Below, one piece after another: positions 12,345 to 27,569 of a stretch of 27,945 bases of DNA. A program made the position numbers and the translations under genes. Under the pieces are notes generated by a model. The model ran no database searches and was not told the DNA's origin. It saw nothing but the letters and a program-made list of their open reading frames with translations. Each line of letters opens with the position of its first letter. The first letter of the stretch is position 1. Source of the DNA: a virus (lineage: Duplodnaviria > Heunggongvirae > Uroviricota > Caudoviricetes); the IMG/VR virus record IMGVR_UViG_2695420817_000020. One strand, written 5' to 3'.

Positions 12345-13824
12345 CACCATTCCGTCGAATACGCTGGTTCCGATTTTTTATGCGGAAATGGATAACTCGG
12401 CGGCGAATACTGCACAGGACAGCGGAGCATCGCTGCTGATTGGTCATGCCAATAACGGTGCAGAGATTGTTGCCAACAGTCTGGTGCTGATGCCATCGGC
12501 AGACTATGCACGCCAGATTTGTGGTGCGGGAAGTCAGCTGGCGCGTATGGTCGAGGCTTATCGCCAGACCGACCCGTTTGGTGAACTGTATGTGATTGCC
12601 GTTCCGGAAGCCACGGGCGCGGCGGCAACGGTTACGCTGACGGTGACCGGCGCGGCAACCGAAACCGGCACGGTGAATGTTTATGTGGGACGTACCCGCG
12701 TGCAGGCACCGGTGACCAACGGCGATAACGTCGCGACGATTGCCAGCAGTATCAAAGATGCCATCAATGCCGTTCCGACCCTGCCGTTTACTGCCTCATC
12801 TTCGGCAGGCGTGGTCACACTGACCGCGCGTCATAAGGGGCTTTGCGGGAATGAAATTCCTGTCAGCCTCAATTACTACGGCTTTGGTGGGGGCGAAGTG
12901 CTGCCAGCGGGCGTACAGATTGCCGTGGCGACGGGTACCGCCGGAACGGGCGCTCCTGTTCTCACCGGCGCGGTGGCTGCAATGGCGGATGAGCCGTTTG
13001 ATTATATCGGCCTGCCGTTCAACGACACAGCCTCCGTTAACACGCTGGTGACCGAGATGAACGATACCAGCGGTCGCTGGAGCTATGCGCGTCAGCTGTA
13101 TGGTCATGTGTATACGGCAAAGATCGGCACGCTGTCAGAACTGGTGACCGCAGGTGACCAGTTTAACCAGCAGCACATTACCCTGGCGGGATACGAAAAA
13201 GAGACCCAGACGCCTGCCGACGAGCTGGCGGCAAGCCGTACCGCCCGCGCAGCGGTGTTTATTCGCAACGATCCGGCACGTCCCACGCAGACCGGTGAGC
13301 TGGTGGGTATGCTGCCTGCGCCGAAGGGGAAACGGTTCACGATGACCGAACAACAGACCCTGCTGTCTTATGGCGTGGCAACGGCGTATGTCGAAAGCGG
13401 GGTGCTGCGCATTCAGCGTGATGTCACCACGTACAGGAAAAACGCTTACGGTGTTGCGGATAACAGCTACCTCGACAGCGAGACGCTGCATACCAGCGCG
13501 TATGTGCTGCGCAAACTGAAATCCGTCATTACCAGTAAGTACGGGCGTCACAAGCTTGCCAGCGACGGTACCCGCTTTGGTCCCGGTCAGGCGATTGTCA
13601 CACCGGCGGTGATCAAAGGGGAACTGCTGGCAACCTACCGTCAGCTTGAGCGTGCGGGGATCGTGGAAAACTACGAACTGTTTAAGCAGTACCTGGTTGT
13701 GGAGCGTGATGCCAGCGATCCGAACCGCCTGAACACGCTGTTCCCGCCTGACTATGTTAACCAGTTGCGTGTCTTTGCCGTGGTTAACCAGTTCCGTCTT
13801 CAGTATTCAGAGGAGTCTGCATAA
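12328..13824 (+). CDS. Tail sheath protein (Mu gpL-like)
   Basis: 498 aa, immediately followed by a tube-size protein and chaperone/tape-measure genes. Confidence 0.85.
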   Translation: MTISFNTIPSNTLVPIFYAEMDNSAANTAQDSGASLLIGHANNGAEIVANSLVLMPSADYARQICGAGSQLARMVEAYRQTDPFGELYVIAVPEATGAAATVTLTVTGAATETGTVNVYVGRTRVQAPVTNGDNVATIASSIKDAINAVPTLPFTASSSAGVVTLTARHKGLCGNEIPVSLNYYGFGGGEVLPAGVQIAVATGTAGTGAPVLTGAVAAMADEPFDYIGLPFNDTASVNTLVTEMNDTSGRWSYARQLYGHVYTAKIGTLSELVTAGDQFNQQHITLAGYEKETQTPADELAASRTARAAVFIRNDPARPTQTGELVGMLPAPKGKRFTMTEQQTLLSYGVATAYVESGVLRIQRDVTTYRKNAYGVADNSYLDSETLHTSAYVLRKLKSVITSKYGRHKLASDGTRFGPGQAIVTPAVIKGELLATYRQLERAGIVENYELFKQYLVVERDASDPNRLNTLFPPDYVNQLRVFAVVNQFRLQYSEESA

Positions 13825-14180
13825 TGGCCCGTATCGGGGGAACCTGTTATTTCAAAATTGACGGTCAACAGCTATCGCTGACCGGCGGCATTGAGGTGCC
13901 CATGAACAGGACGGTCAATGATGACATCATCGGCCTGGACGGTTCAGTGGACCGCAAGGAAACTCACCGTGCGCCTTATGTCAAAGGGACTTTCAAGGTG
14001 CCGAAGAATTTTCCGGTGAACAAAATCACCTCGTCTGATGAGATGACTATCACTGCCGAGCTGGCGAACGGTCAGGTCTATGTACTGTCGTCTGCCTGGC
14101 TGCACGGCGAAGCGAACCATAATGCCGAAGAAGGCACGGTTGATCTTGAGTTCCACGGTGAAGAAGGGGATTACCAGTAA
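13824..14180 (+). CDS. Tail tube protein (Mu gpM-like)
   Basis: 118 aa, directly downstream of the sheath with an overlapping start. Confidence 0.8.
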   Translation: MARIGGTCYFKIDGQQLSLTGGIEVPMNRTVNDDIIGLDGSVDRKETHRAPYVKGTFKVPKNFPVNKITSSDEMTITAELANGQVYVLSSAWLHGEANHNAEEGTVDLEFHGEEGDYQ

Positions 14181-14449
14181 TGAAAGAGCTTGAGTTAAAG
14201 AAACCGATTACTGCTCATGGCGAGACACTCTCCGTACTGGAGTTTGATGAGCCCACCGGGAAGGATGTCCGCGAGCTGGGGTATCCCTACCAGATGAATC
14301 AGGATGAGTCAGTCAAACTTCTGGCGCATGTGGTGTCGAAATACATTGTGCGGCTGGCGAAAGTGCCGCAAATCTCTGTCGACCAGATGTCTCCGGCAGA
14401 CCTGAATGCGGCGGCGTGGCTTGTGGCTGGTTTTTTCCTCCAGGCCTGA
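14180..14449 (+). CDS. Tail assembly chaperone (G-like, zero frame)
   Basis: 89 aa between tube and tape measure. Contains the slippery heptamer T TTT TTC near its 3' end. Confidence 0.65.
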   Translation: MKELELKKPITAHGETLSVLEFDEPTGKDVRELGYPYQMNQDESVKLLAHVVSKYIVRLAKVPQISVDQMSPADLNAAAWLVAGFFLQA

Positions 14450-14598
14450 CGGCTGAATACCTCACTGATCGCTTCTTTGACTGCGCCAGCTACTGGCGCA
14501 TTAATCCTTTCGAATTGCTGAATATGCCGATCAGTGAAATTCCCTTACTGGTCAGTCAGGCAAACAGGATAGAGCAGGAGAAACGCACACATGGCTGA
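14416..14598 (+). CDS. Frameshift extension of the tail chaperone (GT-like; reached by -1 frameshift, no independent start expected)
   Basis: The -1 frame is open from the slippery site to 14598 and overlaps the tape-measure start. Confidence 0.5.
   Translation: MACGWFFPPGLTAEYLTDRFFDCASYWRINPFELLNMPISEIPLLVSQANRIEQEKRTHG
14431..14437 (+). other. Programmed -1 ribosomal frameshift slippery site T_TTT_TTC
   Basis: In the zero frame the codons are GGT TTT TTC. The heptamer fits X_XXY_YYZ, and the -1 frame continues open for 56 codons. Confidence 0.55.
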
Positions 14599-16423
14599 AT
14601 TTGAGCTTAAGGCGTTGATCACCGGTGTCGACAGGCTTTCTCCCGCGCTGTCGAAAATGCAAAAGAAAATCCGGGGATTTAAACGCCAGGCGGAAGAAGC
14701 GTCACAGGGTGGGCTGGCGCTTGGGGGCGGACTGGCAGCGGGTCTGACGCTTTCCCTGAAATCTTATGCCGATCAGGAAAACGCCGCCACCGGGCTGAAA
14801 GTCGCCATGATGGATGCGAACGGCGAGGTTGGAAAGAGCTTTCAGGACATCAATAAACTGGCTATTGGCCTGGGTAACCAGCTACCTGGTACAACGGCTG
14901 ATTTCCAGAACATGATGCAGATGCTGGTGCGTCAGGGGATCCCGGCAGAAAACATTCTGGGTGGTGTGGGTAAAGCGACAGCTTATCTTGCGGTACAACT
15001 GAAAAAAACACCGGAAGCGGCTGCTGAGTTTGCTGCAAAGATGCAGGATGCTACCGGAACGGCGTCAGAAGACATGATGGGGCTGTTCGACACTATCCAG
15101 AAGGCGTTTTATCTGGGCGTTGACGATACCAACATGTTGTCCTTCTTCACTAAAACCAGTTCTGTTCTGAAGATGGTGAACAAGGATGGTCTTCAGGCTG
15201 CACAGAGCCTTGCCCCCATCAGCGTCATGATGGATCAGATGGGGATGAACGGGGAGTCGGCAGGTAATGCCCTGCGAAAAGTTATCCAGTCCGGATTAAG
15301 CGTTAAGAAAATCAGGGACGTTAATAAAGTTATGGCCCGCCAGAAACTCGGGGTACAGCTCGATTTTACTGACGGCAAAGGAAGTTTTGGCGGTCTTGAT
15401 AACATGTTCAGGCAACTGGCAAAGCTGCGAAAACTGACCGACGTTAAGCGAACAGGTGTACTTAAGGCAATATTTGGTGATGATGCCGAAACCCTTCAGG
15501 TGGTCAATGCACTAATCGATAAAGGAAAGGATGGCTACGATCAGATCCAGCAGAAGATGAATAAACAGGCCAGCCTGAATAAACGTGTTCAGGCACAGCT
15601 TGGTACGCTGTCCAACCTGTGGGAGGCAATGACAGGGACCGCAACTAACGGCCTTGCGGCTATTGGCGGCGCATTTTCTGGTGACGCTAAAAATATCACA
15701 CAATGGCTGGGGGAGTTGGGGGAGAAATTCACGAAGTTTGCGGATGAAAATCCCCGGGTTATTCGCGGCGTCGTCGGGCTTGCTGCCGGTCTTGCGATTC
15801 TGAAACTGGGATTGATGGGCGTGGGCAGTGCCATCAGTATTGTCAGCAGGATTATGTCGATGACGCCGATTGGCATGATTGCGACGGCGATTGCTCTGGC
15901 TGCGGGATTAATTATCACTAACTGGGATGTTGTCGGACCTTATTTCAAGAAGCTCTGGGAAACCATTGGTCCTTATTTTGAGGCAGGTTGGGAACTTCTG
16001 AAGAAGGTTTTTGCCTGGTCGCCGCTGGGGATGGTGATCAATAACTGGGGACCGGTTGTTAAGTGGTTTCAGGATATGTGGGACAAGCTGAAGCCAATTA
16101 TTGAGTGGTTTACCGACAGTTCCGGTGACACGGTCGATGCCATTAACTCTGCGCAGTGGGGCGCGGGTGCTTATGATGCTTATGGGACGGGAATACCGGC
16201 GCGGGGATACACACCTTATCCGGCGGTGGATCCGGCTCAGTCAAACAACGCCTCCGATGCCACAGGCTCGAATCCCTTCATGATTAACAAAGCTTCTGTG
16301 CCAAAAGTTGATGGTGAGATCAAGGTATCTTTTGTGAATTCGCCTCCGGGTATGCGGGTTATGGAAACGCGATCCAGCGGTTTTGATGTCAGCCATGATG
16401 TTGGCTATACGCGGTTCAGGTAG
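14591..16423 (+). CDS. Tail tape measure protein
   Basis: 610 aa, Ala/Gly-rich with hydrophobic C-terminal segments. Follows the chaperone pair. Confidence 0.85.
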   Translation: MAEFELKALITGVDRLSPALSKMQKKIRGFKRQAEEASQGGLALGGGLAAGLTLSLKSYADQENAATGLKVAMMDANGEVGKSFQDINKLAIGLGNQLPGTTADFQNMMQMLVRQGIPAENILGGVGKATAYLAVQLKKTPEAAAEFAAKMQDATGTASEDMMGLFDTIQKAFYLGVDDTNMLSFFTKTSSVLKMVNKDGLQAAQSLAPISVMMDQMGMNGESAGNALRKVIQSGLSVKKIRDVNKVMARQKLGVQLDFTDGKGSFGGLDNMFRQLAKLRKLTDVKRTGVLKAIFGDDAETLQVVNALIDKGKDGYDQIQQKMNKQASLNKRVQAQLGTLSNLWEAMTGTATNGLAAIGGAFSGDAKNITQWLGELGEKFTKFADENPRVIRGVVGLAAGLAILKLGLMGVGSAISIVSRIMSMTPIGMIATAIALAAGLIITNWDVVGPYFKKLWETIGPYFEAGWELLKKVFAWSPLGMVINNWGPVVKWFQDMWDKLKPIIEWFTDSSGDTVDAINSAQWGAGAYDAYGTGIPARGYTPYPAVDPAQSNNASDATGSNPFMINKASVPKVDGEIKVSFVNSPPGMRVMETRSSGFDVSHDVGYTRFR

Positions 16424-16522
16424 TGTACAAAATGATTAATGTGTTTTTGTCTGGCATAATTTGGGTTTTCAGCTTTAAGTAGTTAATATAATCATTCCTT
16501 ACAAATGATTGAAGGGATGATT

Positions 16523-17017
16523 ATGCGTATCTTTGTTTTTTTTATATCTGCACTTTTATCTTTTAACTTGGCTGCGGAAGAGTGTAAGTTCAGCTTTAAT
16601 GAGTCAGAATTAATCTCTTCTATAGGTATTGCACCAGTTAAGCAAGAGATAATAAAGGATGAAGGAATAACTAAGCGGCAATATGAATTCAGAAGAGAAT
16701 TATCTTCTGAAGAAATGCTTAGTGATGACGCTGATGAAAAATATGAGCCGCAGTTTTATATATCTGTTTATAATCCATCATGCCCACAAAAGGTTATTGT
16801 TTGGTTTTTCAAAGACAATAAAAACACAATGGATTTAAGTAATGAGGTCCTTGCTGGTAGAGCGTTCAAATATTTAACTGGTGTTAATGAAAGTATTTTT
16901 GAAAATAAAATGAAAAAGTTTTTAAAGGTACAGTCATTTGAATCTTTTGATGAAAGGACAGATTCTAAATTTATAAAGAGTGGTGATATTTATTCCATTG
17001 ATGTTCAACTCAGATAG
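16523..17017 (+). CDS. Hypothetical secreted/periplasmic protein (moron) with N-terminal signal peptide
   Basis: AAGGGA RBS before ATG 16523. N-terminus MRIFVFFISALLSFNLAAEE is signal-peptide-like. Codon usage strongly A+T-rich, unlike the flanking tail genes. The tracked ORF starts at 16505. Confidence 0.6.
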   Translation: MRIFVFFISALLSFNLAAEECKFSFNESELISSIGIAPVKQEIIKDEGITKRQYEFRRELSSEEMLSDDADEKYEPQFYISVYNPSCPQKVIVWFFKDNKNTMDLSNEVLAGRAFKYLTGVNESIFENKMKKFLKVQSFESFDERTDSKFIKSGDIYSIDVQLR

Positions 17018-17036
17018 TAATTAAAAATATTAGGTT

Positions 17037-17092
17037 CCCGCCACATCTTCTGCGATGTAAATAACTGACAAAGCAGATTTGGCGGGTTTTTT
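17037..17092 (+). terminator. Imperfect long hairpin plus T6; putative terminator of the moron
   Basis: CCCGCC...(loop)...GGCGGG with internal ATCT/GCAGAT pairing, followed by TTTTTT at 17087-17092. Confidence 0.4.
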
Positions 17093-17107
17093 GTATCCGG
17101 AGTTTAT

Positions 17108-18436
17108 ATGACGTGGAAAGACAGGCTTCAGGATGCGTCATTTCGCGGCGTACCGTTTAAGGTTGAAGAAGAAAGTGCGGGAACCGGTCGCCGTGTGGAA
17201 ACACATGAATACCCGAACCGCGACAAGCCCTATACCGAAGATCTGGGAAAAGTCACTTTCCGCCCGTCCATCACAGCTTATGTGGTGGGAGATGACTGCT
17301 TTGACCAGCGCGATCGCCTGATTGACGCGCTGAATAAACCCGGTCCCGGCACGCTTGTCCACCCGACATATGGTGAGCTGAAAGTCTGTGTTGACGGGGA
17401 AGTTCGGGTCAGCACATCGAAAAGTGAAGGGCGTATTGTCCGCTTTGACCTGAAGTTTGTCGAAGCAGGAGAACTCTCTTACCCCACATCAGGTGCGGCG
17501 ACGGCGCAGACGCTGATGTCATCCTGTTCTGCACTGGATGACTGCATCAGTGACAGCTTCAGCGGTTTCAGTATCGATGGTGTGGCGGATTTCGTGCAGA
17601 ACGACGTTATCGGTAATGCCAGCATAATGCTGGGGTATGTTTCTGATGCGATGAAAGTGGTGGATTCTGCCGTATCGGATGCCGCCAGGCTGTTGCAGGG
17701 GGATATCTCGGTACTTCTGCCGCCGCCATCGTCAGGCAAAAATTTCGTTGAGCAGGTGCAGAAAATGTGGCGTACCGGGAAACGCCTTTATGGTAACGCC
17801 AGCGACCTGGTCACCATGATCAAAACGCTTTCCGGTGTCAGCCTCGGCAGCGATCTGCAACCGCGCGGCGTCTGGAAAACGGACAGTAAAACCACCGCCA
17901 CGGCGACGCAGCAGCGTAACGTGGTTGCCAGCACCCTTCGTACGACCGCAATCAGCGAAGCGGCGTATGCCGTCACCCGATTGCCTGCGCCAACAACTTC
18001 CGCGGTGATGCAGAATTCCGCAGTGGGGCAGGCAACAACACCCGCGCAGAGCACTGGCTGGCCTTCCGTCACGCATCCGGCACTGAACAATGCACCGGCG
18101 GTGAAAAACACGGTTGACCTGCCGACGTGGGAAGAACTGACTGACATTCGCGACACACTGAATACGGCAATTGATAAGGAGTTGTCCCGTACAACCAGCG
18201 ATGCGCTGTTTCTGGCGCTGCGCCGGGTGAAAGCAGATCTGAATGCGGATATCAACACGCGCCTTGAACAGTCTGCACGGATCATTCAGCGCACACCGGA
18301 TGAGGTTTTACCCGCGCTGGTGCTGGCGGCGACCTGGTTTGATAACGCGGCGCGTGACGCGGACATTATCCGGCGTAATGCCATTACGCATCCCGGCTTT
18401 GTGCCGGTGATCCCTCTGAAGGTGCCAGTGCAATGA
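17108..18436 (+). CDS. DNA circulation protein (Mu gpN-like)
   Basis: 442 aa. N-terminus MTWKDRLQDASFRGVPF... resembles Mu N family proteins. Lies between tape measure and baseplate genes. Confidence 0.8.
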   Translation: MTWKDRLQDASFRGVPFKVEEESAGTGRRVETHEYPNRDKPYTEDLGKVTFRPSITAYVVGDDCFDQRDRLIDALNKPGPGTLVHPTYGELKVCVDGEVRVSTSKSEGRIVRFDLKFVEAGELSYPTSGAATAQTLMSSCSALDDCISDSFSGFSIDGVADFVQNDVIGNASIMLGYVSDAMKVVDSAVSDAARLLQGDISVLLPPPSSGKNFVEQVQKMWRTGKRLYGNASDLVTMIKTLSGVSLGSDLQPRGVWKTDSKTTATATQQRNVVASTLRTTAISEAAYAVTRLPAPTTSAVMQNSAVGQATTPAQSTGWPSVTHPALNNAPAVKNTVDLPTWEELTDIRDTLNTAIDKELSRTTSDALFLALRRVKADLNADINTRLEQSARIIQRTPDEVLPALVLAATWFDNAARDADIIRRNAITHPGFVPVIPLKVPVQ

Positions 18437-19512
18437 ACGACAATGTCACGCTACGGGTAAATGGCCGGGAGTGGAATGGCTGGACATCGGTGCGCATCGG
18501 TGCCGGTATTGAACGGCTGGCGCGGGATTTCAGTGTGGAGATCACCCGCCAGTGGCCGGGAGATGAGGGTATCACCACGCTTCAGCCGCGCATTAAAAAC
18601 GGTTCAAAAGTGGAGGTGCTGATTGGTGATGAGCTGGTGATCACCGGCTGGGTGGAGGCGACGCCCGTTCGTTACGATGCCCGTTCGGTCAGCACCGGTA
18701 TTGCCGGACGCAGTCTGACCGCTGATCTGATTGACTGTGCAGCCGAACCGACACAGTTTAACGGACGATCGCTGGTACAGATTGCGCAGGCGCTTGCTGC
18801 GCCCTTCGGCATTGAGGTGGTGAACAACGGTGCGCCGTCGGGTGTTATTCCTGACGTCCAGCCTGATCACGGTGAAACGGTGATTGAGGTAATCAACAAA
18901 ATACTCGGTCAGCAGCAGGCACTGGCTTACGACGACCCGCACGGCAGGCTGGTGATTGGCGGTATTGGCTCAACGCGGGCACATACTGCGCTGGTACTCG
19001 GGGAAAACATCCTTTCCTGCGATACGGAGAAGAGTATCCGGGAGCGATTTTCTGTTTACCAGGTGGCGGGGCAACGTGCCGGAAACGACGATGATTTCGG
19101 TGAGGCCACCACCACCGCGCTGCGGGCCCGCACAGAGGACGCATTTATTGCCCGTTACCGTCCGATGTATATCAGGCAGACAGGGCAGGCTACGGGAGCA
19201 GGCTGTATTGCCCGTGCGGACTTTGAAGCCCGACAACGGGCGGCGCGGACGGATGAAACCACCTATGTGGTGCAGGGCTGGCGACAGGGTAACGGTACGC
19301 TGTGGCAGCCCAACCAGCGGGTGATTGTCTTTGATCCGGTCTGTGGTTTCGACAATACCGAACTGCTTGTTTCGGAAGTCACGTTTACTCAGGACCAGAA
19401 CGGCACCCTGACGGAAATCCGTGTCGGCCCACCTGATGCTTATCTGCCTGAACCCGAAGCCCCCGGCGCGCGGAAAAAGAAAAAAGCCAGAGTACAGGAG
19501 GATCCGTTCTGA
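18433..19512 (+). CDS. Baseplate hub / tail protein (Mu gpP/gp44-like)
   Basis: 359 aa, overlapping start. Conserved order N-P-V(gp45)-gp46-gp47-gp48. Confidence 0.75.
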   Translation: MNDNVTLRVNGREWNGWTSVRIGAGIERLARDFSVEITRQWPGDEGITTLQPRIKNGSKVEVLIGDELVITGWVEATPVRYDARSVSTGIAGRSLTADLIDCAAEPTQFNGRSLVQIAQALAAPFGIEVVNNGAPSGVIPDVQPDHGETVIEVINKILGQQQALAYDDPHGRLVIGGIGSTRAHTALVLGENILSCDTEKSIRERFSVYQVAGQRAGNDDDFGEATTTALRARTEDAFIARYRPMYIRQTGQATGAGCIARADFEARQRAARTDETTYVVQGWRQGNGTLWQPNQRVIVFDPVCGFDNTELLVSEVTFTQDQNGTLTEIRVGPPDAYLPEPEAPGARKKKKARVQEDPF

Positions 19513-20060
19513 TGAGGACGATTGAAGCCATGCAGCGACAACTCCTCGGCCTGATTGGGCGGGCCGTGGTGAAAAGCATCAGTGCCGCCACGAAATGTCA
19601 GACCGTGGATGTGTCTCTGATTGCCGGTGAACCCAAAGCCGGGGTTGAACATCTTGAACCCTACGGTTTTACCTCAAGGGCAAACAGCGGTGCGGAAGCG
19701 GTGGTGTTGTTTCCGGATGGCGACCGCTCTCATGCGGTGGTTGTTACGGTGTCGGACCGGCGCTACCGCCTGAAAGGGCTGCAGACGGGTGAGGTGGCTG
19801 TCTATGACGATCAGGGGCAGTCTGTGACGCTGACCCGGGAGGGGATCGTGGTGGACGGTGCAGGTAAAACGATCACGTTTCGCAATTCACCTAAAGCACG
19901 TTTTGAAATGGACCTGGAAGTGACAGGACAGGTGAAAGACCTGTGCGACTCCAGCGGCACCACCATGTCAGCGATGCGGCTTGCCTATAACGGGCATCGT
20001 CACAGAGAGAACGGTCAGGGCAGTAACACCGACAAACCTGATAAAGCGATGGAGGCATGA
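19512..20060 (+). CDS. Baseplate assembly protein V / spike (Mu gp45-like)
   Basis: 182 aa. Position and size match Mu gp45-like baseplate spike proteins. Confidence 0.75.
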   Translation: MRTIEAMQRQLLGLIGRAVVKSISAATKCQTVDVSLIAGEPKAGVEHLEPYGFTSRANSGAEAVVLFPDGDRSHAVVVTVSDRRYRLKGLQTGEVAVYDDQGQSVTLTREGIVVDGAGKTITFRNSPKARFEMDLEVTGQVKDLCDSSGTTMSAMRLAYNGHRHRENGQGSNTDKPDKAMEA

Positions 20061-20485
20061 TGGAACTGTGGCTGACGGTGAACGGTAAACGCACCTGCGC
20101 CAGCGCACCGCTGGATCCGCTGACCCGCGCCGTGGTGATTTCCCTGTTTACCTGGCGGCGGGCGGAGCCTGATGACAACGCCGACGTCCCGATGGGATGG
20201 TGGGGGGATACCTGGCCTGCGGTACAGAATGACCGTTACGGCTCCCGACTGTGGCTGCTTCAGCGCAGCAAACTGACCAATCAGCTGGTGCAGACGGTAA
20301 GGGGGTATATCCGCGAATGCCTGCAATGGATGATTGATGACGGCGTGGTGTCCCGTATTGATCTGGATATCCGCCGCACCGGGATTAATGAACTGGGTAA
20401 CAGTATCACTCTCTGGCGTCGTGACGGACCGGTAATGATTTCTTTTGATGATCTGTGGAGTGCGATAACGCATGGCGGACAGTGA
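20057..20485 (+). CDS. Baseplate protein (Mu gp46-like, GPW/gp25-type)
   Basis: 142 aa, overlapping starts on both sides. Confidence 0.7.
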   Translation: MMELWLTVNGKRTCASAPLDPLTRAVVISLFTWRRAEPDDNADVPMGWWGDTWPAVQNDRYGSRLWLLQRSKLTNQLVQTVRGYIRECLQWMIDDGVVSRIDLDIRRTGINELGNSITLWRRDGPVMISFDDLWSAITHGGQ

Positions 20486-21530
20486 ATTTCAGCGCCCGAC
20501 GCTGGCAGAAAATATCAGTATGCTCCGTAACGATTTATTTGCCAGGCTGGACGTCAGCGACACGCTCCGGCGCATGGATGAAGACGTGCGGGCAAAGGTG
20601 TATGCGGCGGCGCTGCATACGGTTTACGGGTACATCGATTATCTGGCAATGAATATGCTGCCTGACCTGTGCGATGAGTCCTGGCTGGCGCGACATGCTG
20701 CGATGAAACGGTGTCCGCGCAAGGGGGCCACGGCTGCCAGCGGGTATATGCGCTGGGAAGGCGTCAGCGATGGCCTGAAGGTGACCGCCGGGAGTGTTAT
20801 TCAGCGCGATGACCTGGTTCAGTACACGGCAACTGCCGATGCAACCAGCGCCGGTGGTGTCCTGCGCGTGCCGATCGCCTGCTCAAGTGCAGGCGCGGTC
20901 GGTAACGCTGACGACGGTACGTCATTAATCCTGGTTACGCCGGTTAATGGTCTGCCGTCTTCCGGCGTGGCAGACACTCTGACAGGTGGATTTGATACTG
21001 AAGATCTGGAAACGTGGCGCGCCCGCGTCATTGAGCGGTATTACTGGACTCCTCAGGGCGGGGCTGACGGGGACTATGTTGTCTGGGCTAAAGAAGTGCC
21101 CGGCATTACCCGCGCATGGGCATACCGTCACTGGATGGGAACGGGGACTGTCGGTGTGATGATTGCCAGCAGTGACCTGATTAATCCCATTCCGGAAGAA
21201 TCAACGGAAACGGCGGCAAGACAACATATCGGGCCACTGGCCCCGGTGGCAGGCTCTGATTTGTATGTGTTCAGGCCGGTGGCGCATACGGTGGATTTTC
21301 ATATCCGTGTGACGCCGGACACACCGGAAATACGGGCTGCCATCACCGCGGAGTTGCGTTCGTTCCTGCTGCGTGATGGTTATCCGCAGGGAGAACTGAA
21401 GGTGTCGCGTATCAGTGAAGCGATTTCCGGTGCGAACGGGGAATACAGCCATCAGTTGCTTGCACCGGCGGAAAATATCTCCATTGCAAAAAATGAACTG
21501 GCGGTTCTGGGGACGATTTCATGGACGTGA
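20472..21530 (+). CDS. Baseplate J-like protein (Mu gp47-like)
   Basis: 352 aa in the conserved baseplate wedge position. Confidence 0.8.
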
Positions 21531-22105
21531 CAAACGATGATTACATCCGTCTGTTGTCGGCACTGCTGCCGCCCGGTCCGGCGTGGTCAGCCAGCGATCC
21601 GGCGATTGCCGGTGCGGCACCGTCATTAACCCGCGTTCATCAGCGTGCGGATGCCCTGATGCGGGAGCTGGATCCGCGCACCACCACCGAACTGATAAAT
21701 CGCTGGGAGCGTCTGTGCGGCCTGCCGGATGAATGTATTCCCGCAGGAACACAGACCCTTCGCCAGCGTCAGCAACGACTGGATGCGAAGGTTAACCTGG
21801 CGGGCGGCATCAACGAGGATTTTTATCTTGCACAGCTTGCTGCCCTGGGCAGACCAGATGCCACCATCACGCGATACGACAAAAGCACGTTCACCTGCTC
21901 ATCGGCCTGTACTGACGCGGTGAATGCGCCGGAATGGCGGTATTACTGGCAGGTCAACATGCCAACCACCACCAACACCACCTGGATGACATGTGGCGAT
22001 CCCTGTGATTCCGCACTGCGTATCTGGGGTGACACCGTTGTCGAGTGTGTGCTTAACAAACTCTGCCCGTCGCATACCTACGTAATTTTTAAATATCCGG
22101 AGTAA
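21521..22105 (+). CDS. Tail protein (Mu gp48-like / YmfQ-like)
   Basis: 194 aa, immediately upstream of the tail fibre gene. Confidence 0.7.
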
Positions 22106-22108
22106 TCC

Positions 22109-22882
22109 ATGCATCGTATAGACACGAAAACCGCGCAGAAGGATAAGTTCGGCGCGGGTAAGAACGGTTTTACCCGTGGTAACCCCCAGACTGGCACGCC
22201 TGCCACCGATCTGGATGATGACTACTTTGACATGTTGCAGGAGGAGCTTTGCAGCGTTGTGGAGGCATCCGGTGCCAGCCTGGAGAAGGGGCGGCATGAC
22301 CAGCTGCTTACCGCGCTTCGTGCGCTGCTGTTAAGCCGCAAGAATCCGTTTGGCGATATCAAATCGGATGGCACGGTGAAAACAGCTCTCGAAAACCTTG
22401 GTTTGGGAGAAGGTTCGGCATTACCCGTTGGTGTGCCTGTTCCATGGCCTTCAGCCACACCGCCAACAGGCTGGCTGAAATGCAACGGTGCGCCTTTTTC
22501 TGCAGAAGAATACCCGGAACTGGCAAAGGCTTATCCAACAAATAAATTGCCTGATTTACGCGGTGAATTCATTCGCGGCTGGGATGATGGGCGCGGGGTG
22601 GATGCTGGTCGAGATTTGTTATCATCTCAAGGGGATGCAATAAGAAATATAACTGGAGGATTTAATATCAGACCTGGATCGAGCAGTGCTTTGATTACTT
22701 TCGCTGCTGGTGCTCTTAAAGTAGCATCAAGAGTTCAAAGTGCTTATGTCACAAACACTTCAGCCACTGACAAAATTGCTGAAGGTATAGACTTCGATGC
22801 CAGTGCTGCTCCTGGAGTTGTAACTGCATCTGAAAACCGTCCAAGAAATATCGCGTTTAACTACATTGTAAGGGCAGCATGA
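22109..22882 (+). CDS. Tail fibre protein (constant N-terminus plus variable C-terminus in the current orientation)
   Basis: 257 aa. A recombination crossover site lies about 97 codons in. Followed by a tail-fibre assembly gene. Confidence 0.8.
22386..22411. repeat. Invertase crossover site (gix/hix/pix-like), left, inside the tail fibre gene
   Basis: 26 bp CTCTCGAAAACC TT GGTTTGGGAGAA. The inner half-site is a perfect inverted copy of the inner half-site at 24244-24255. Confidence 0.75.
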
Positions 22883-23484
22883 TGAATAAAGTTGTATTAA
22901 ATAGTGAGCTTATTGCTACAAAGGCGGGGAGTGTTACCGTTTATAATTATGATGGCGAAACACGGGAATATATTGCCACATCAACTGAACATCTTGCTGT
23001 CGGTGTCGGTATCCCGGTATGTTCTTGTTTAGATGCTCCGAGCTCAAACAAAGCTGGTTATGCAATCTGCCGTTCGGCAGATTTAAACTCATGGGAATAT
23101 GTGCCAGACCATCGCGGTGAAACGGTCTATAGCACCGAAACAGGAGAATCAAAAGAAATCACCGCTCTGGGTGATTACCCTGAAAATACAACCACTATCG
23201 CCCCGTTAACGCCATATGATAAATGGAATGGTGAAAAATGGGTGGCGGATACTGAGGCACAGCATAGCGCCGCAGTAGAAGCGGCAGAAGCACAGCGCCA
23301 GTCACTGATTGATGCTGCAATGGCTTCCATTGGTCTGATTCAGCTGAAATTACAGGCCGGACGGAATCTGACGCAGGCAGAAACCGCCAGACTTAACGCT
23401 GCGCTGGATTACATTGACGCGGTGACGGCAACAGATACCAGCACGGCGCCGGATGTCATCTGGCCTGAACTGCCGGAGGCGTAG
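22879..23484 (+). CDS. Tail fibre assembly protein (Tfa/U-like)
   Basis: 201 aa with Tfa-like C-terminus (...[25 protein letters not shown]). Confidence 0.8.
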
Positions 23485-23896
23485 GCCATTCAATATCTGG
23501 CGCACTGGAAGTATCGACCAGTTCCAGTGCGTCCAGATAATCCAGCCACAAATTATATTGCGCCAGTTCCTCACCTTTCAGGCGACCAATCGCCGCTTTA
23601 CCAGGCCATTGCTTACTGTGTGTGTATTCGTTGACCTGATTAATCAATTGCTGCTTTTCCAGTTCGGCTGCGGCAATTTGTTCCTCATGAGTTGGCGGTG
23701 GAATATCAATCCATGCAGGCATTCCGTCGATGACACCTCTGTATTTTCCTTCTGGTGCTTCCTTCATAAATTCGGCGGCAACAGTGTCGTCAATTTCGAT
23801 TCCATCACCGGGCCATTCGCCGGATTCCTGATAAGCGATTTTAAGCTCCACAGGGAAAAACGCATTTTTATCGGCACTGAAAATATATTTCTGCAT
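23456..23896 (-). CDS. Alternative tail fibre assembly protein (Tfa'/U'-like)
   Basis: 146 aa on the opposite strand with Tfa-like C-terminus (...[21 protein letters not shown]). Convergent with the + strand Tfa inside the invertible segment. Confidence 0.75.
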   Translation of the reverse strand: MQKYIFSADKNAFFPVELKIAYQESGEWPGDGIEIDDTVAAEFMKEAPEGKYRGVIDGMPAWIDIPPPTHEEQIAAAELEKQQLINQVNEYTHSKQWPGKAAIGRLKGEELAQYNLWLDYLDALELVDTSSAPDIEWPTPPAVQAR

Positions 23897-23898
23897 TT

Positions 23899-24257
23899 CT
23901 ACCGTCCTATCGAAATATAACTGAATCTGTATTGCTGTGAGATATCACTGGTTGCCACACGCCACGCTGAATTACTGATATGTTCAAAATTTACAGACAA
24001 AACCTGCGGGGCAGGATTCGACGGGGCTGACTGAACGGCATCAGACATAACACTGACTGAAACCATCGGCTGATTAGGGAATGGTATAGGGAAGTGTCCA
24101 CTGATAAAGCGGGTCGTGTTTCCTGAAAAAGTGCCAAACTGAACAATATATCCACCTGGTAGCCTGAACCATCCCGAACCAGAAGCGAATGCTCCCATAT
24201 CCGGTATCTGATTATCTCCTGTGCCCACATCCCTTTTCGCCGCTTCTCCCAAACCAA
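23899..24257 (-). CDS. Alternative tail fibre C-terminal segment (S'-like); no own start, expressed only after inversion
   Basis: Minus-strand frame is open from the right crossover core to 23899. After inversion it joins in frame to the constant N-terminus (…ENLGLGE + AAKRDVGTG…). Confidence 0.7.
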
Positions 24258-24269
24258 CCTTTCAAATAT
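24244..24269. repeat. Invertase crossover site, right, just upstream of the invertase gene
   Basis: 26 bp TTCTCCCAAACC AA CCTTTCAAATAT, closely resembling hix/gix-type sites. Confidence 0.75.
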
Positions 24270-24328
24270 TTTTCTGAATCAGGTGATATTTCGCCTCTTC
24301 TCCTGTTTTTACAACAGGAGAAGCACTC

Positions 24329-24892
24329 ATGATTTACGGGTATGTTCGTGTATCAACAAATCATCAGGATACAGAGTTGCAACGTCTTGCACTTGAGTCA
24401 GCTGGCTGTGAGCGAATTTATGAAGAATATGCCAGTGGCAGAACAGCTAATCGCCCTGTGTTAAAGGAATTAATTACGGTGATGAAAAGTGGAGATGAGT
24501 TGATTGTCTGGAAGTTAGATCGGATAGGGAGAAATGTGCTGCATGCGCTATTGATGTTTCAAAATCTGCACGAAAAAGGTGTTAATTTTCGGAGTATTAC
24601 AGATGGCGTAGACCTGAAAACAGCAAGTGGTCGCTATAATTTCCGTAATATTCTTTCTGCTGCGCAGTATGAATCTGATTTGAATAGCGAGCGAACTTTA
24701 GCTGGTTTGGCTATTGCCAGATCCAAAGGCCGGATTGGTGGGCGTAGACCGAAGTTTAGCGACGAGCAGTGGCAACAGATGGGAGCGCTCATAGCGGCAG
24801 GGAAATCACGGCGTTATGTTGCACGTATCTATAACGTTGGGCTATCAACCCTATATAAACGATTTCCTGTTACTGGCATTCAAACGAAATAA
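24329..24892 (+). CDS. Site-specific DNA invertase, serine recombinase (Pin/Gin/Hin family)
   Basis: 187 aa. N-terminal catalytic motif YVRVST, ...WKLDRIGR..., C-terminal helix-turn-helix (LSTLYKRF). Adjacent to the invertible tail-fibre segment. Confidence 0.9.
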   Translation: MIYGYVRVSTNHQDTELQRLALESAGCERIYEEYASGRTANRPVLKELITVMKSGDELIVWKLDRIGRNVLHALLMFQNLHEKGVNFRSITDGVDLKTASGRYNFRNILSAAQYESDLNSERTLAGLAIARSKGRIGGRRPKFSDEQWQQMGALIAAGKSRRYVARIYNVGLSTLYKRFPVTGIQTK

Positions 24893-24932
24893 TTTAAAAG
24901 CAATTTAAAGAGTTATTTGTCTAATGTTGGAA

Positions 24933-24968
24933 GCCGCAGCCACGTCGTATGCAAGAACGTGCTGCGGC
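24933..24968. terminator. Hairpin between convergent invertase and DinI-like genes (possible bidirectional terminator)
   Basis: GCCGCAGCCACG ... CGTG-CTGCGGC stem of about 11 bp with one bulge. No strong T-run on either side. Confidence 0.35.
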
Positions 24969-25035
24969 TGGCTGGCGAACTTTCGATAGTGCGAGTATTG
25001 AATGATTTCCAGCCGTTACCGATTTTACGTGTTAA

Positions 25036-25284
25036 TTAGTGAACAAACCACTCGTCAGCAGATTCCCAGGTATCTTTCAGAGTCTCCTGAACAAAAGTTT
25101 TTGCAGAATCCTTATCTGCGGTGCGTGTAACAGAAAGGCCATCGTTGCTGGTGGCTTTTACGATCACCTCTACATCGTCATAACGTTTACTGATGCGTCG
25201 GGTTAATTCTTCCTTTAACGCATCCACAGCACCGGTTGGCATTTTAGTCATTTTTTCTTTGGCTATGCAGATTTCAATACGCAT
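25036..25284 (-). CDS. DinI-family protein (SOS-inducible RecA modulator homologue)
   Basis: 82 aa. MRIEI.IAK...P.GA.DAL..EL..RI...TWESADEWF resembles E. coli DinI. Two LexA boxes in its promoter. Confidence 0.8.
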
Positions 25285-25297
25285 AAAAGTCCCTCTA

Positions 25298-25349
25298 TAC
25301 TGTGTTTGTATACAGTATTATTTTTAACTGTATGGATAAACAGTGTCAA
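25298..25349 (-). promoter_or_regulatory. SOS promoter with two LexA boxes upstream of the DinI-like gene
   Basis: TACTGTgtttgtatACAGTA (25298-25317) and aCTGTatggataaACAGt (25327-25344), both CTGT-N8-ACAG. On the minus strand a perfect TTGACA -35 lies at 25344-25349. Confidence 0.7.
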
Positions 25350-26443
25350 GAGGTCTTATTTCTGCTCCTTTGGAGCTCTTCAAAACGATTATGTAAAGAT
25401 TTCGGATACAGTTCGGTATATACCTGCCATAGCACGTTTAATGAACGATGCCCTGTAACCTGGGCGACTTCCTCAATACTAAAACCAGCCTCAAATAAGC
25501 GACTTGCCCCTTCTCTACGCAAATCATGGTATCGCAGATCTTTAATACCTAATTTGCTTCTTACCCTCTGGAATCCCGCAGTAACAGAAGTGCTGTTATA
25601 TGGAAAAATGAATTCTGATTTTTTGGGTTGTCGTTGGACGATATCCCAGGCTTCCCCAAGCAAGGCTACTTTCATATGGTTGCCTTCCTTTTTACGTGGA
25701 TCTTTCCTGTCTCTTACGAGTATGGATTTTTGTTCCTGATCGAGATCCTCCCATCGTAATCGGCATACTTCACCGATTCGCATACATGACCACACAGAAA
25801 ATTTGAGGATATCAACGAACGGAATTTTTGAGCATTTATGTGTAGATCGTTGTTGAAGACCTTCAATGAGCATGTCCAGTTCATCAGATGCCGGTCTACG
25901 ATTACGACGATTTGATTTACCAATTAAACCAAGTTTAAGTAGATATGGACGAGCGGCTTTTGCTGGGTTTGATGTGTAATTAATTCCATATACAGGTTTG
26001 GCAGCATCCAGAACACTGCCAAGATAACTAACATCGTGGCTAACTGTAGCTGGACCTGCACCAGCGTTGTTTCTTAGCCTGCAATGTTCAATTACGTCAT
26101 TTTCTGTCAGTTCAGATAGTTTGATCGCGGAGATGTCACTATCCATAAGCAGTTCCAGCACATATCTTTTAGTACGGCCTGCTTTACCTCCGGCATTTGG
26201 GTCATTTAAATATTTGTGTAGTAAGTCACGGACTGTAAGTCCGTCAACTGCATTTGATGATGGAATGCCATATAGATCTAATTCCATCACTTTCTGTGTG
26301 CCCCATGTTTTGGCATGAGCATGTTTAGGGAATGTTTTGCTTTCCCTGTAAGTGATAACACCTTTTTCTTTGATAATCACATTACAGCGATAGCGTGGTG
26401 TGCCATCGGATTTTAGTCGTTTCTCTATGTTATAGTACGCCAT
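25346..26443 (-). CDS. Tyrosine-type phage integrase (dusA-associated)
   Basis: 365 aa. C-terminal catalytic region (...YHDLRREGASR...GHRSLNVLWQVYTELY). GAGG RBS. Divergent from dusA, 88 bp away. Confidence 0.9.
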   Translation of the reverse strand: MAYYNIEKRLKSDGTPRYRCNVIIKEKGVITYRESKTFPKHAHAKTWGTQKVMELDLYGIPSSNAVDGLTVRDLLHKYLNDPNAGGKAGRTKRYVLELLMDSDISAIKLSELTENDVIEHCRLRNNAGAGPATVSHDVSYLGSVLDAAKPVYGINYTSNPAKAARPYLLKLGLIGKSNRRNRRPASDELDMLIEGLQQRSTHKCSKIPFVDILKFSVWSCMRIGEVCRLRWEDLDQEQKSILVRDRKDPRKKEGNHMKVALLGEAWDIVQRQPKKSEFIFPYNSTSVTAGFQRVRSKLGIKDLRYHDLRREGASRLFEAGFSIEEVAQVTGHRSLNVLWQVYTELYPKSLHNRFEELQRSRNKTS

Positions 26444-26462
26444 TACACGACCTCGTTATTTC

Positions 26463-26498
26463 GGGTTCCCATAAAACGTGGGAACCTGTGCGGGAACC
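26463..26498. repeat. Clustered GGGAACC / GGTTCCC repeats in the int-dusA intergenic region
   Basis: GGGTTCCC (26463-26470), GGGAACC (26480-26486), GGGAACC (26492-26498); the first two form an inverted repeat. Candidate recombinase or regulator binding sites (inference). Confidence 0.35.
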
Positions 26499-26531
26499 TA
26501 ACGCGAGAAAAATAGCCTGAAATGTTCAAAA

Positions 26532-27569
26532 ATGCACGATAATCATGAAACACAAAAAATTAATCAAACCAGCGTGATGCCTGAAAAAACTGGTGTTTAC
26601 TGGAATTCTCGGTTTAGCATTGCTCCTATGCTTGACTGGACGGACAGACATTGCCGTTATTTCCTGCGTCTGCTTTCCCGCAATACGTTGCTGTATACCG
26701 AAATGGTGACCACAGGGGCGATTATTCACGGTAAAGGTGATTACCTGGCGTACAGTGAAGAAGAACATCCGGTAGCGTTGCAACTCGGGGGTAGCGATCC
26801 GGCGGCGCTGGCACAGTGTGCGAAGCTGGCAGAAGCGCGTGGATATGATGAGATCAACCTGAATGTCGGCTGCCCGTCTGACCGGGTGCAGAACGGCATG
26901 TTTGGTGCGTGTCTGATGGGTAATGCGCAGCTGGTTGCCGACTGCGTGAAAGCGATGCGCGATGTGGTGTCGATTCCGGTGACGGTGAAAACGCGTATTG
27001 GCATCGATGATCAGGACAGCTATGAATTTCTCTGCGATTTCATCAACACCGTTTCCGGCAAAGGTGAGTGTGAGATGTTCATCATCCACGCACGTAAAGC
27101 CTGGCTTTCTGGGTTAAGTCCGAAAGAAAACCGTGAGATCCCGCCTCTCGATTATCCGCGTGTGTATCAACTGAAGCGTGACTTTCCGCATCTGACGATG
27201 TCGATTAACGGTGGTATCAAGTCGCTGGAAGAAGCTAAAGCGCATTTGCAACATATGGATGGCGTGATGGTCGGGCGCGAGGCGTATCAGAATCCGGGTA
27301 TTCTGGCGGCGGTAGACCGAGAGATTTTTGGTTCCTCGGATACTGATGCTGATCCGGTGGCGGTAGTGCGCGCCATGTATCCGTACATTGAGCGTGAACT
27401 CAGCCAGGGTACGTATCTCGGCCATATTACCCGGCATATGCTGGGCTTGTTCCAGGGTATTCCTGGCGCGCGGCAGTGGCGGCGTTATTTAAGTGAAAAT
27501 GCCCATAAAGCGGGTGCAGACATTAATGTGCTGGAACACGCGCTCAAACTGGTGGCGGATAAGCGTTAA
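26532..27569 (+). CDS. dusA: tRNA-dihydrouridine synthase A
   Basis: 345 aa, TIM-barrel Dus motifs, near-identical over most of its length to E. coli DusA as I recall it. Followed by pspG as in E. coli. Confidence 0.9.

Follow-up and report, generated by a model that had tools for sequence, protein, structure and literature searches.

Organization of the int–dusA junction

The analysed stretch, hereafter the window, comprises the 27,945 nt of IMG/VR virus record IMGVR_UViG_2695420817_000020, and its right-hand part sets an integrase gene directly beside the 5′ end of dusA. In the list of open reading frames, int occupies positions 25346..26443 on the minus strand and encodes 365 aa, and dusA occupies 26532..27569 on the plus strand and encodes 345 aa. 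The genes lie on opposite strands and are separated by a gap of exactly 88 bp (26444..26531), as described in an earlier note made from the sequence, which had placed the integrase start 88 bp from that of dusA. By Pfam, the integrase falls in PF00589 (E 1.1e-20) and DusA in PF01207 (Dus; E 7.8e-105). The dusA ORF is chimeric, intact and open across the junction, and its product exceeds the cut-offs of NCBIfam TIGR00742 (581 bits) and NF008774 (560 bits).

Positions 1..26627 form the right-hand ~26.6 kb of a prophage carrying an antiterminator, lysis genes, terminase, an HK97-type head, a Mu/SfV-type contractile tail, an invertible tail-fibre segment, DinI, int and a phage-borne dusA 5′ end. 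This region matches phages SKA5 and SfV and is collinear with the annotated prophage of H10407. Specifically, 89% of positions 1–25000 matches SKA5 at 98.4% and 68% matches SfV at 97.8%, and the late genes in the window are all open and 97–98% identical to these sequenced phage genomes. Within the window, neither a tRNA gene nor an attL or displaced dusA fragment is present.

The phage DNA extends beyond the integrase gene. While the earlier note correctly located the boundary near the dusA 5′ end, its statement that the phage module ends at int needs refining, as phage sequence continues 96–104 bp into the dusA ORF, to 26628–26635. The end coordinate that it gave, 26640, coincides with the end of a 19-nt attB-like motif, GCTCCTATGCTTGACTGGA (26622–26640), which matches the published Citrobacter rodentium attB at 17 of 19 bases.

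Crossover point and comparison of att sites

The comparison covered the empty site (K-12 and Z1323HEC0475), both junctions in the sister lysogens H10407 and UPEC_U013, and attP in phages SKA5 and mEp460. Across the K-12 attB, the H10407 attL and attR, and the SKA5 and mEp460 attP, the only common block is ATGCTCGA; each flank goes with either phage or host, the right one independently of the left. The same segregation is obtained when the native-type attB of Z1323HEC0475 is combined with attL and attR of UPEC_U013.

In the window, the crossover block ATGCT(C/T)GA spans 26628–26635, flanked by the last phage-diagnostic base at 26627 and the first host-diagnostic base at 26636. The attR core itself reads ATGCTTGA (26628..26635) and covers dusA codons Met33 and Leu34 and the first two bases of Asp35. 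All DNA to the left of the crossover is of phage origin, including the 88-bp spacer and DusA codons 1–32, and all DNA to the right is of host origin, beginning with the remainder of dusA (codons 35–345; 26636..27569, plus strand). The window shows 0 mismatches to H10407 over 25000–26632 and 39 mismatches beyond, and positions 26628–27945 are 100% identical to Z1323HEC0475, an empty-site strain. Alignment with unoccupied dusA loci, which the earlier note had suggested as a check, places the end of phage-type sequence and the beginning of host sequence within this block. The refuting scenario raised there, a dusA 5′ end identical to that of empty-site genomes with the prophage boundary at a tRNA, is excluded by the differing 5′ end and the absence of a tRNA boundary.

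The remaining forms of the site are present elsewhere. The attP form occurs in the SKA5 and mEp460 genome records and in five IMG/VR contigs; in the two phages, the 96-nt dusA′ segment, the 88-bp spacer and int adjoin the core, followed by the other phage arm. An attL with the same core is present in both sister lysogens, where the H10407 side is annotated as a pseudo 'tRNA-dihydrouridine synthase, missing C-terminus' and UPEC_U013 has an equivalent fragment. A displaced dusA 5′ fragment, proposed as a second check, thus exists at the other prophage end in these lysogens, the window stopping short of its own attL. Collectively, the comparison establishes the position of the junction and the phage origin of the dusA 5′ end, together with the attP, attL and empty attB forms in other genomes.

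Core alleles among hosts are ATGCTCGA, ATGCTTGA and ATGTTAGA. Core position 26633 is T in the window and C in all phage attP sequences found, and UPEC_U013 has the T core at both junctions; either the infecting phage had the T variant, or a core mismatch was tolerated and repaired. Narrowing the crossover to ATGCT by means of the T at 26633 was rejected, since T at both UPEC_U013 junctions is impossible from a simple exchange between attP(C) and attB(T). The attR core falls inside the attB of C. rodentium and the 7-base core region that were published for phage 1720a-02 (PMC6328086).

Phage-borne dusA 5′ end

The phage-borne dusA′ segment (26532..26627, plus strand) provides the start codon and codons 1–32, including a replacement β1 strand, RFSIAP. 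It is identical to the segment beside int in the SKA5 attP, which is annotated there as a 40-aa 'tRNA-dihydrouridine' CDS. The K-12 DusA N-terminus reads MHGNSEMQKINQTSAMPEKTDVHWSGRFSVAP, from which the first 32 residues of the window's protein differ; the two proteins show 10 amino-acid differences, all in residues 3–30, and are identical over residues 31–345. The unusual N-terminus noticed earlier is therefore real, although the K-12 sequence set against it, MHGNTEMQ, was one residue off. At the DNA level, 18 mismatches to K-12 fall in the 96 nt before the core compared with 28 in the 934 nt of dusA after it, so that dusA′ is 81% identical to the K-12 5′ end as against 97% for the remainder of the gene. 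No DNA homology of dusA′ to the native-type 5′ end of Z1323HEC0475 was found.

DusA codons 1–32 are phage-derived, with the frame intact and RFSIAP kept, and the same dusA′, spacer and int next to the core in the SKA5 and mEp460 attP bear out the suggestion that the phage supplies a replacement 5′ end. No clear Shine-Dalgarno sequence precedes the annotated dusA start codon, and translation may instead begin at another in-frame ATG, at 26577.

Integrase and candidate arm-type sites

The integrase (25346..26443, minus strand) contains the RHRH tetrad together with the tyrosine nucleophile of tyrosine recombinases. The catalytic residues are R222, H306, R309, H332 and Y342; all five are invariant when the protein is aligned with homologues of Yersinia phage YeP1, Mixta, Pectobacterium and Morganella. 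Over 364 aa the protein shows 100% identity to Int of phage 1720a-02, and it is 98–99.7% identical to the integrases of mEp460, SKA5, phiSTEC1575-Stx2k and Lys8385Vzw; a search of solved structures returns matches to Xer-type catalytic domains only. Variability is greatest in the N-terminal ~70 residues, and the C-terminal half is nearly invariant across genera. No Pfam arm-binding domain was detected in residues 1–70, the weak Int_N match (E 0.038) covering residues 72–165.

The DAI (dusA-associated integrase) family and the dusA-specific elements were defined by Farrugia et al. 2015, NAR 43:4547 (PMC4482086), who described insertion sites flanked by semi-conserved direct repeats (attL/attR) and excision of the element as a circle, restoring wild-type dusA. 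In the window, int lies directly beside the dusA 5′ end, the insertion site is conserved, the 5′ end is replaced in frame, and the DNA across int and attR is identical to that of the H10407 element listed by these authors, which together identify it as a DAI. The earlier statement that a dedicated integrase family at the dusA 5′ end is an established pattern is accordingly well founded, Table S1 of the same paper (PMC4482086) listing the H10407 element, to which the window is identical over 25000–26632. A divergent int directly upstream of dusA is also found in Mixta, Pectobacterium, Morganella, Xenorhabdus and Grimontia.

Analysis of the attP region reveals a short repeated motif, GGGAACC, with four copies within 235 bp around the SKA5 attP core compared with 0.57 expected by chance. 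Three copies lie on the int arm, and the far arm carries GGGATCC and a further GGGAACC. The three int-arm repeats are intact in the window, as an inverted copy at 26464..26470 (minus strand) and direct copies at 26480..26486 and 26492..26498 (plus strand), and these repeats in the leader are candidate arm-type integrase binding sites. Of 69 viral contigs with an integrase of this type, only one departs from these motifs, whereas the intervening spacers are variable; where int has been lost, the motifs are degenerate.

Diverged integrases are accompanied by other motifs at the same positions, namely GGGGTGCTG in YeP1, Mixta and locus L077, and GGTGTAC in Xenorhabdus. This joint change of the candidate arm-site sequence and the integrase across genera seems less documented, and it suggests that DAI-family integrases may have arm sites evolving in concert with their N-terminal part. 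When viral contigs were scanned with the integrase alignment, nearly all matches were E. coli copies at 99–100% identity, which added little to the test of cross-genus covariation.

Candidate dusA promoter

A candidate for the phage-supplied dusA promoter is the extended −10 element TGtTATAGT at 26428..26436 (plus strand), which overlaps int codons 3–5 and has no good −35 element. The motif TGNTATAGT or a close variant lies 190–202 nt upstream of the core in 11 of 12 int-linked loci with an MHxN-type dusA 5′ end, the exception being Pectobacterium locus L057, where TAAAAT takes this position. In 31 element-free native dusA loci of enterobacteria, the same motif, exact or slightly varied, is positioned 99–110 nt upstream of the core. 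These positions suggest that the start of int in the elements is fused to a sequence mimicking the host promoter. The overlap of an extended −10 for dusA with the first integrase codons seems less documented.

A standard scan found no sigma-70 promoter in the 88-bp spacer, and relaxed-scan candidates at ~26517–26567 on both strands were weak and overlapping and were not relied on. For another dusA element, dusA expression from an element-supplied promoter has been demonstrated with a lacZ fusion (PMC8409611); this experiment and the conserved extended −10 are the grounds for proposing a phage-supplied promoter here.

Integration model and alternatives

The segment 25346–26640 almost certainly represents the attR of a temperate phage whose structural genes are of the SfV/SKA5 type and which became integrated site-specifically in the 5′ end of E. 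coli dusA. In this account, the dusA-associated integrase recombined the phage attP with a chromosomal attB formed by the dusA Met-Leu-Asp-Trp codons, with strand exchange inside the 8-bp ATGCT(C/T)GA. The attP carries, beside int, a look-alike of the dusA start, consisting of a candidate promoter, 88-bp leader, start codon and 32 codons, so that integration rebuilds a full-length, in-frame dusA at attR. The host promoter and first codons would remain at attL, some 40 kb distant and beyond the window. The predicted attL to the left of the window would consist of a host dusA 5′ fragment, ATGCT(C/T)GA and TAGGATGTACC; in a native-type host, a 5′ fragment ending CGATTGCCCCG would be joined to ATGCT(T/C)GA and TAGGATGTACCG, with a PrtN-family gene nearby. 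PrtN-family genes are located on the far arm, opposite int, in H10407, UPEC_U013 and mEp460, and this arm lies outside the window. Integrase-dependent excision and integration ~100 bp into dusA have been shown for phage 1720a-02, which has an identical Int and of which a Δint mutant forms no attP (PMC6328086), and excision requires the PrtN-type directionality factor RdfN in another dusA element (PMC8409611).

That the junction is real and the element a decaying, immobile remnant with a non-functional integrase or sites is unlikely. In other genera, decayed integrases are often found beside element-type dusA 5′ ends, with Int residues 1–92, 1–43 or 1–19 left in loci L077, L079 and L060, and the prophage's own attL and RDF gene lie beyond the window; however, the integrase here is full-length, retains every catalytic residue and matches an experimentally active enzyme at 100% identity, the three repeats are intact and the late genes in the window are open. 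The core T variant, absent from every phage attP found, could also be taken to indicate an immobilized element, but the sister lysogen UPEC_U013 has the same T core at both junctions, so no heterology would block excision.

The divergent first 30 DusA codons could in principle be allelic variation of a hypervariable host segment, with the prophage boundary upstream of dusA at the int end or in the spacer, as element-free E. coli genomes do have two very different dusA 5′ ends (1123 versus 4303 genomes). This possibility is already refuted by the attP sequences, in which the exact 96-nt segment and spacer are joined to the other phage arm in SKA5 and mEp460; additionally, the window equals the H10407 prophage up to 26632 with a host part that is 3% different, and the empty-site strain with the identical host part has an unrelated 5′ end. 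RecA-dependent homologous recombination between phage dusA′ and host dusA, for which the 81–83% identity to the K-12-type host 5′ end over ~110 nt would offer a substrate, has practically no probability given that one 8-bp block holds the crossover in K-12-type and native-type hosts alike, the latter without homology left of the core, and that deletion of the identical int abolishes attP formation (PMC6328086).

Site-specific integration by the DAI places the prophage right boundary at 26628–26635, inside dusA, and for annotation the dusA ORF is a phage–host chimera rather than a pseudogene. The prophage whose right-hand end lies in the window is an ordinary one of E. coli, and insertion at the dusA start with a replacement gene start has been known since 2015. 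The finding as such matters little, as the system is well documented (Farrugia 2015, Balasubramanian 2019, Rivard 2021) and some 1 in 7 complete E. coli genomes contain it. The side observations on candidate arm sites, promoter overlap and a possible fossil gene start seem less documented and could matter more.

Frequency and origin of the K-12 dusA start

Among 5426 complete E. coli genomes, 733 (about 14%) cover at least 80% of window positions 25000–27945, and attL junctions are found in 663 genomes of K-12-type hosts and 80 of native-type hosts. A K-12-type dusA 5′ end, with 32 codons (MHGNSEMQ...), a ~88-nt leader and a promoter, is present in 4303 of the 5426 (79%). The other 1123 have zur directly upstream, 18 codons (MPAESH...) and a promoter 99 nt from the core.

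On balance, we lean towards a joint reading in which the K-12 dusA start is the fossil of an earlier dusA-specific element, the ancestral form surviving in the 1123 genomes, with the promoter over the int codons and the arm sites in the leader as linked features. As part of this joint reading, the placement of the promoter over the first int codons and of arm sites in the leader means that integrase occupancy of these sites could modulate dusA expression. In the K-12 yjbM–dusA spacer, the search for integrase remnants gave weak collinear matches (E 0.019 and 1.5) and tblastn returned nothing, so the fossil idea is founded on architecture and not on residual int sequence. Neither a displaced native 5′ fragment nor a far-arm (P′) remnant was found between zur and yjbL in K-12, and homologues of DUF2713 (YjbL/M), sought as island cargo, had no matches in phages or in 80 enterobacterial dusA loci. 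If the reading is true, one mobile element after another has replaced the promoter and N-terminus of a housekeeping gene, today's phages enter the scar of a predecessor, and the interpretation of data on the K-12 DusA N-terminus and promoter would be affected.

Comparison with known systems

The closest known system is the dusA-specific prophage of H10407 (NC_017633.1 4684277..4723914), listed in Table S1 of Farrugia et al. 2015 (PMC4482086). It shares with the window an identical DinI-int-spacer-dusA′ segment (25000–26632) and agrees with it in core, in orientation and in the order of the SfV/Mu-type late genes. In contrast, the H10407 prophage occupies a K-12-type attB with a yjbLM-like DUF2713 gene upstream and core ATGCTCGA, whereas the host part of the window corresponds to strains in which zur is the immediate upstream neighbour and the core reads ATGCTTGA. 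Differences extend to some late genes, such as those for the tape measure and tail-fibre tips.

The Stx2d phage phi1720a-02 (KF030445) of C. rodentium, whose Int is the identical one noted above, integrates ~100 bp into dusA, with a 'PhidusA′' ORF fused in frame and the core in the same motif (Balasubramanian et al. 2019; PMC6328086). Unlike the window's prophage, it is a lambdoid Stx-converting phage with another structural module, so that the int–attP cassette alone is shared. This illustrates the modular exchange of the cassette among phages, as also seen in mEp460, SKA5 and the Stx2k phage.

IMEVchUSA3 and other Vibrio dusA-specific elements bring a new promoter, a new N-terminus and the PrtN-type RDF RdfN for excision (Rivard et al. 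2021; PMC8409611). IMEVchUSA3 resembles the window in its dusA target and in the length of the new N-terminus (61% identical to K-12 across the 35 residues compared), but it is a mobilizable island rather than a phage, with rdfN under AcaCD from IncC plasmids (PMC8409611).

More distantly, SXT and e14 likewise integrate in a conserved housekeeping gene and bring a substitute gene end that keeps the host function, while using other integrase families and other target genes. The e14 element inserts at the 3′ end of icd, and replacement of a 3′ end needs no promoter. SXT inserts at the 5′ end of prfC (cited in PMC8409611).

The layout of the candidate arm sites invites comparison with lambda-type heterobivalent integrases. 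Unlike in lambda, Pfam detects no arm-binding domain in residues 1–70 and the repeats are located in the presumed dusA leader, an arrangement with no parallel there. As in the lambda-type systems, a short motif is repeated on both attP arms, three times on the int side and once or twice on the far side, and the candidate motif varies with the N-terminal part of Int while the catalytic half and the core remain constant.

Junction between prophage and host dusA

A tyrosine recombinase gene, int (365 aa, 25346–26443, minus strand; PF00589, E 1.1e-20), lies next to dusA (345 aa, 26532–27569, plus strand; PF01207, E 7.8e-105; NCBIfam DusA models over their cut-offs), with exactly 88 bp between the two oppositely oriented ORFs, as the earlier note had given. 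All DNA left of int is phage DNA, while pspG follows dusA in the same way as in E. coli K-12. Escherichia phage SKA5 covers 89% of positions 1–25000 at 98.4% identity and SfV covers 68% at 97.8%, and the window is collinear in gene order with the annotated prophage of E. coli H10407.

Comparison with the empty K-12 locus reveals no homology upstream of dusA, and within the gene the first 96 nt are only 81% identical, against 97% for the remainder. All ten protein differences (10/10) fall in residues 3–30, so the earlier note was right in substance that the DusA N-terminus is unlike that of K-12. The 81% figure, together with the absence of tRNA genes from the window, excludes a dusA 5' end shared with empty-site genomes or a boundary at a tRNA.

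The junction was positioned by comparing the empty host site (attB) of K-12, the left and right junctions of the H10407 prophage (attL and attR), the attR of the window, and the phage sites (attP) of SKA5 and mEp460. A single block, ATGCTCGA, is common to all of these, and the flanks assort independently around it: the left flank is of phage or host type, while the right flank is either CTGGACGG (dusA) or TAGGATGTACC (far phage arm). In the window this core reads ATGCTTGA at 26628–26635, spanning codons Met33 and Leu34 and the Asp35 codon up to its second base. Given this independent assortment, the phage provides the 88-bp spacer and dusA codons 1–32, and the host provides the sequence from 26636 on. 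The proposed boundary at the dusA 5' end therefore holds, but the phage module does not stop at the integrase. SKA5 has an annotated 40-aa 'tRNA-dihydrouridine' CDS adjoining int, and the displaced dusA 5' fragment expected at the other prophage end is present in H10407 as an annotated truncated dusA pseudogene; the window does not extend as far as its own attL. The observation of a prophage at the dusA 5' end is confirmed and its reading as an element supplying a new start is supported, although such insertion is already known, ordinary and already explained.

Host background, frequency and core variants

Positions 25000–26632 are identical to the H10407 prophage, with 39 differing positions beyond, whereas the host part (26628–27945) is 100% identical to strain Z1323HEC0475, in which the site is empty, zur is the immediate upstream neighbour of dusA, and the gene begins with an entirely different 5' end. 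UPEC_U013 is a lysogen in a Z1323HEC0475-type background; its attR is identical to that of the window, and its attL consists of a native 5' fragment, ATGCTTGA and TAGGATGTACC. A UPEC_U013-like attL/attR configuration is predicted for the source genome of the window. At least 80% of window positions 25000–27945 is covered in 733 of 5426 complete E. coli genomes. The attL of this phage type occurs in 663 genomes with a K-12-type (MHGN...) dusA 5' end and in 80 with a native-type end (zur adjacent), and integrase relatives in IMG/VR number about 300.

The window core has T at 26633, the allele found in hosts of the native-type lineage, and UPEC_U013 carries the T core at both junctions. All phage attP copies found carry C (ATGCTCGA); in IMG/VR, five contigs have this form and no contig has the T form. 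The explanation is either that T-type phages circulate unsampled or that a mismatched core is tolerated and then repaired. The core differs between hosts (window 26633; L090 and L089, both UPEC_U013; L103; L098). One contig from a more divergent host has an attR with ATGTTAGA, and a second element copy in the same genome has its junction in non-dusA sequence (ATGC joined to GTGGCTGG), apparently a secondary site. A further record, CP169086.1 (L009), is labelled Enterobacter hormaechei B17-3; its DusA shares 98% and its Zur 97% identity with the E. coli counterparts despite an Enterobacter-like DusA N-terminus, and it may be mislabelled or recombinant.

Neighbouring phage genes

A DinI-like gene (25036–25284, PF06183), on the same strand as int, lies between int and a serine invertase gene (24329–24892; Resolvase and HTH_7). 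The DinI–int pair is kept together in mEp460, SKA5 and E. coli lysogens, and promoter-like hexamers occur nearby at 25349–25320 and 25277–25250. The invertase gene adjoins a segment bounded by 20-nt inverted repeats 1830 nt apart, AAACCTTGGTTTGGGAGAAG and CTTCTCCCAAACCAACCTTT (22393–22412 and 24243–24262), which bracket alternative tail-fibre tips together with genes for tail-fibre assembly. The region is an invertible host-range segment of the Gin/Cin/Pin type.

Candidate integrase arm sites

The 88-bp spacer contains three copies of GGGAACC, one inverted (26464–26470) and two direct (26480–26486 and 26492–26498). SKA5 attP has one or two further copies 45–60 bp past the core, giving four exact copies within 235 bp where 0.57 is expected by chance. 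The arrangement recurs as a 7–9-bp motif, one inverted and two direct, at offsets −164, −148 and −136 from the core (window 26464–26498; SKA5, 2748–2980; Yersinia phage YeP1, 1250–1480; L055, L057, L061, L066, L077). Elements with diverged integrases retain identical offsets with another motif, namely GGGGTGCTG, shared by YeP1, Mixta and locus L077, or the Xenorhabdus motif GGTGTAC; the YeP1 far arm has two further motif copies. The repeats are degenerate where the integrase has decayed. Across 69 viral contigs of this integrase type (68 at 98–100% identity, one at 89%), substitutions hit the inter-repeat spacers, and one repeat copy is changed only in the 89% locus, L176. Between genera, the integrase differs in its N-terminal ~70 residues and hardly at all in its C-terminal half; Pfam detects no arm-binding domain. 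From the fixed offsets, the motif change with integrase divergence, the decay with int loss, the substitutions falling mainly in the spacers and the variable N-terminus, these repeats are probably integrase arm sites co-varying with the Int N-terminal region. The word 'arm' is absent from the text of Farrugia et al. (PMC4482086).

Candidate dusA promoter and start codon

An extended −10 motif, TGNTATAGT, is conserved upstream of dusA among Enterobacteriaceae. It precedes the core by 99–110 nt in 31 enterobacterial dusA loci that have no element, and by 190–202 nt in 11 of 12 int-linked loci with an MHxN-type 5' end. In the window it occupies 26428–26436, overlapping int codons 3–5 (MAYYNI); counterparts are at 3899–3909 in Z1323HEC0475 and at 6578–6586 in K-12, and the survey drew on 80 genome loci (L009–L088). 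In Pectobacterium, the int amino acids at codons 3–5 are changed while TAAAAT stays in the same place, which argues for constraint on DNA rather than protein. On this sequence evidence, the motif is the best candidate for a phage-supplied dusA promoter, and the element seems to bear a duplicate of the host promoter, joined to the start of its own int gene.

At the annotated start of the phage-borne dusA 5' end (dusA'), ATGCAC(G/C)AnAAT (26532–26543, encoding MH-x-N) is conserved across elements although the following codons are unrelated, which suggests a DNA-level signal that may be the −10 of the opposite-strand int promoter. The true dusA' start codon could instead be a further in-frame ATG at 26577 (MPEKT...), which lines up with the native-type start; neither ATG is preceded by a clear Shine–Dalgarno sequence.

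The K-12 dusA start as a possible element scar

Complete E. coli genomes fall into two clean groups: the native-type 5' end is present in 1123 and the K-12 type in 4303, together all 5426. The native type has zur adjacent, about 18 codons before the core (MPAESH...) and the promoter motif about 100 nt upstream, and matches that of other genera, among them Enterobacter, Kluyvera, Klebsiella and Buttiauxella. The architecture of the K-12 type is that of the elements: 32 codons from MH-x-N (MHGN...), TGGTATAGT at −188, and 1.6 kb of 34%-GC DNA (yjbL/yjbM) separating zur from dusA (K-12, 5085–6765, compared with Z1323HEC0475, 3792–4008). The 96-nt K-12 5' end shares 81–83% identity with the dusA' of living E. 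coli elements, and these share only 72–93% with one another.

Other genera exhibit graded integrase decay beside element-type dusA 5' ends. Int remnants span residues 1–92 and 268–314 in Xenorhabdus (L077), 1–43 and 342–358 in an unclassified Pseudomonadota MAG (L079), and 1–19 in Photorhabdus (L060), all three with the MHxN type, and 246–353 in Vibrio (L084), where the dusA N-terminus is of a different type. Five further loci (L027, L062, L065, L073, L076) have an element-type start with no detectable int. Element scars at dusA seem common, and the K-12 dusA start has, by its architecture, the look of a scar left by an older dusA-specific element. Counting against this, no clear int or attL remnant was found in K-12, and no phage homologue of YjbL/M. 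Rivard et al. regard the N-terminus of K-12 as native and describe an element N-terminus of the same length and 61% identical to it (PMC8409611); the literature search found no mention of a scar. Only three of these observations may go further than the literature searched: the candidate arm sites, the mimicry of the host promoter and the K-12 start as a relic.

Comparison with known dusA elements

Residues R222, H306, R309, H332 and Y342 form the catalytic set of the integrase, whose sequence matches Int of Stx phage 1720a-02 at 100% identity over 364 aa. That phage integrates 100 bp into dusA through a 7-base core and carries an in-frame 'PhidusA'', and its delta-int mutant completely loses attP circles (PMC6328086). 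The dedicated integrase family invoked in the earlier note is that defined by Farrugia et al. in 2015, whose Table S1 includes the H10407 element (4684277..4723914; PMC4482086); its int/attR side is identical to that of the window, and the tabulated boundaries coincide with the core derived here. In another dusA element, Rivard et al. (2021) showed that a functional promoter and a new N-terminus come from the element, and that excision depends on RdfN, a factor of the PrtN type (PMC8409611). PrtN-family genes are present in the far arm of H10407, UPEC_U013 and mEp460, an arm that lies outside the window.
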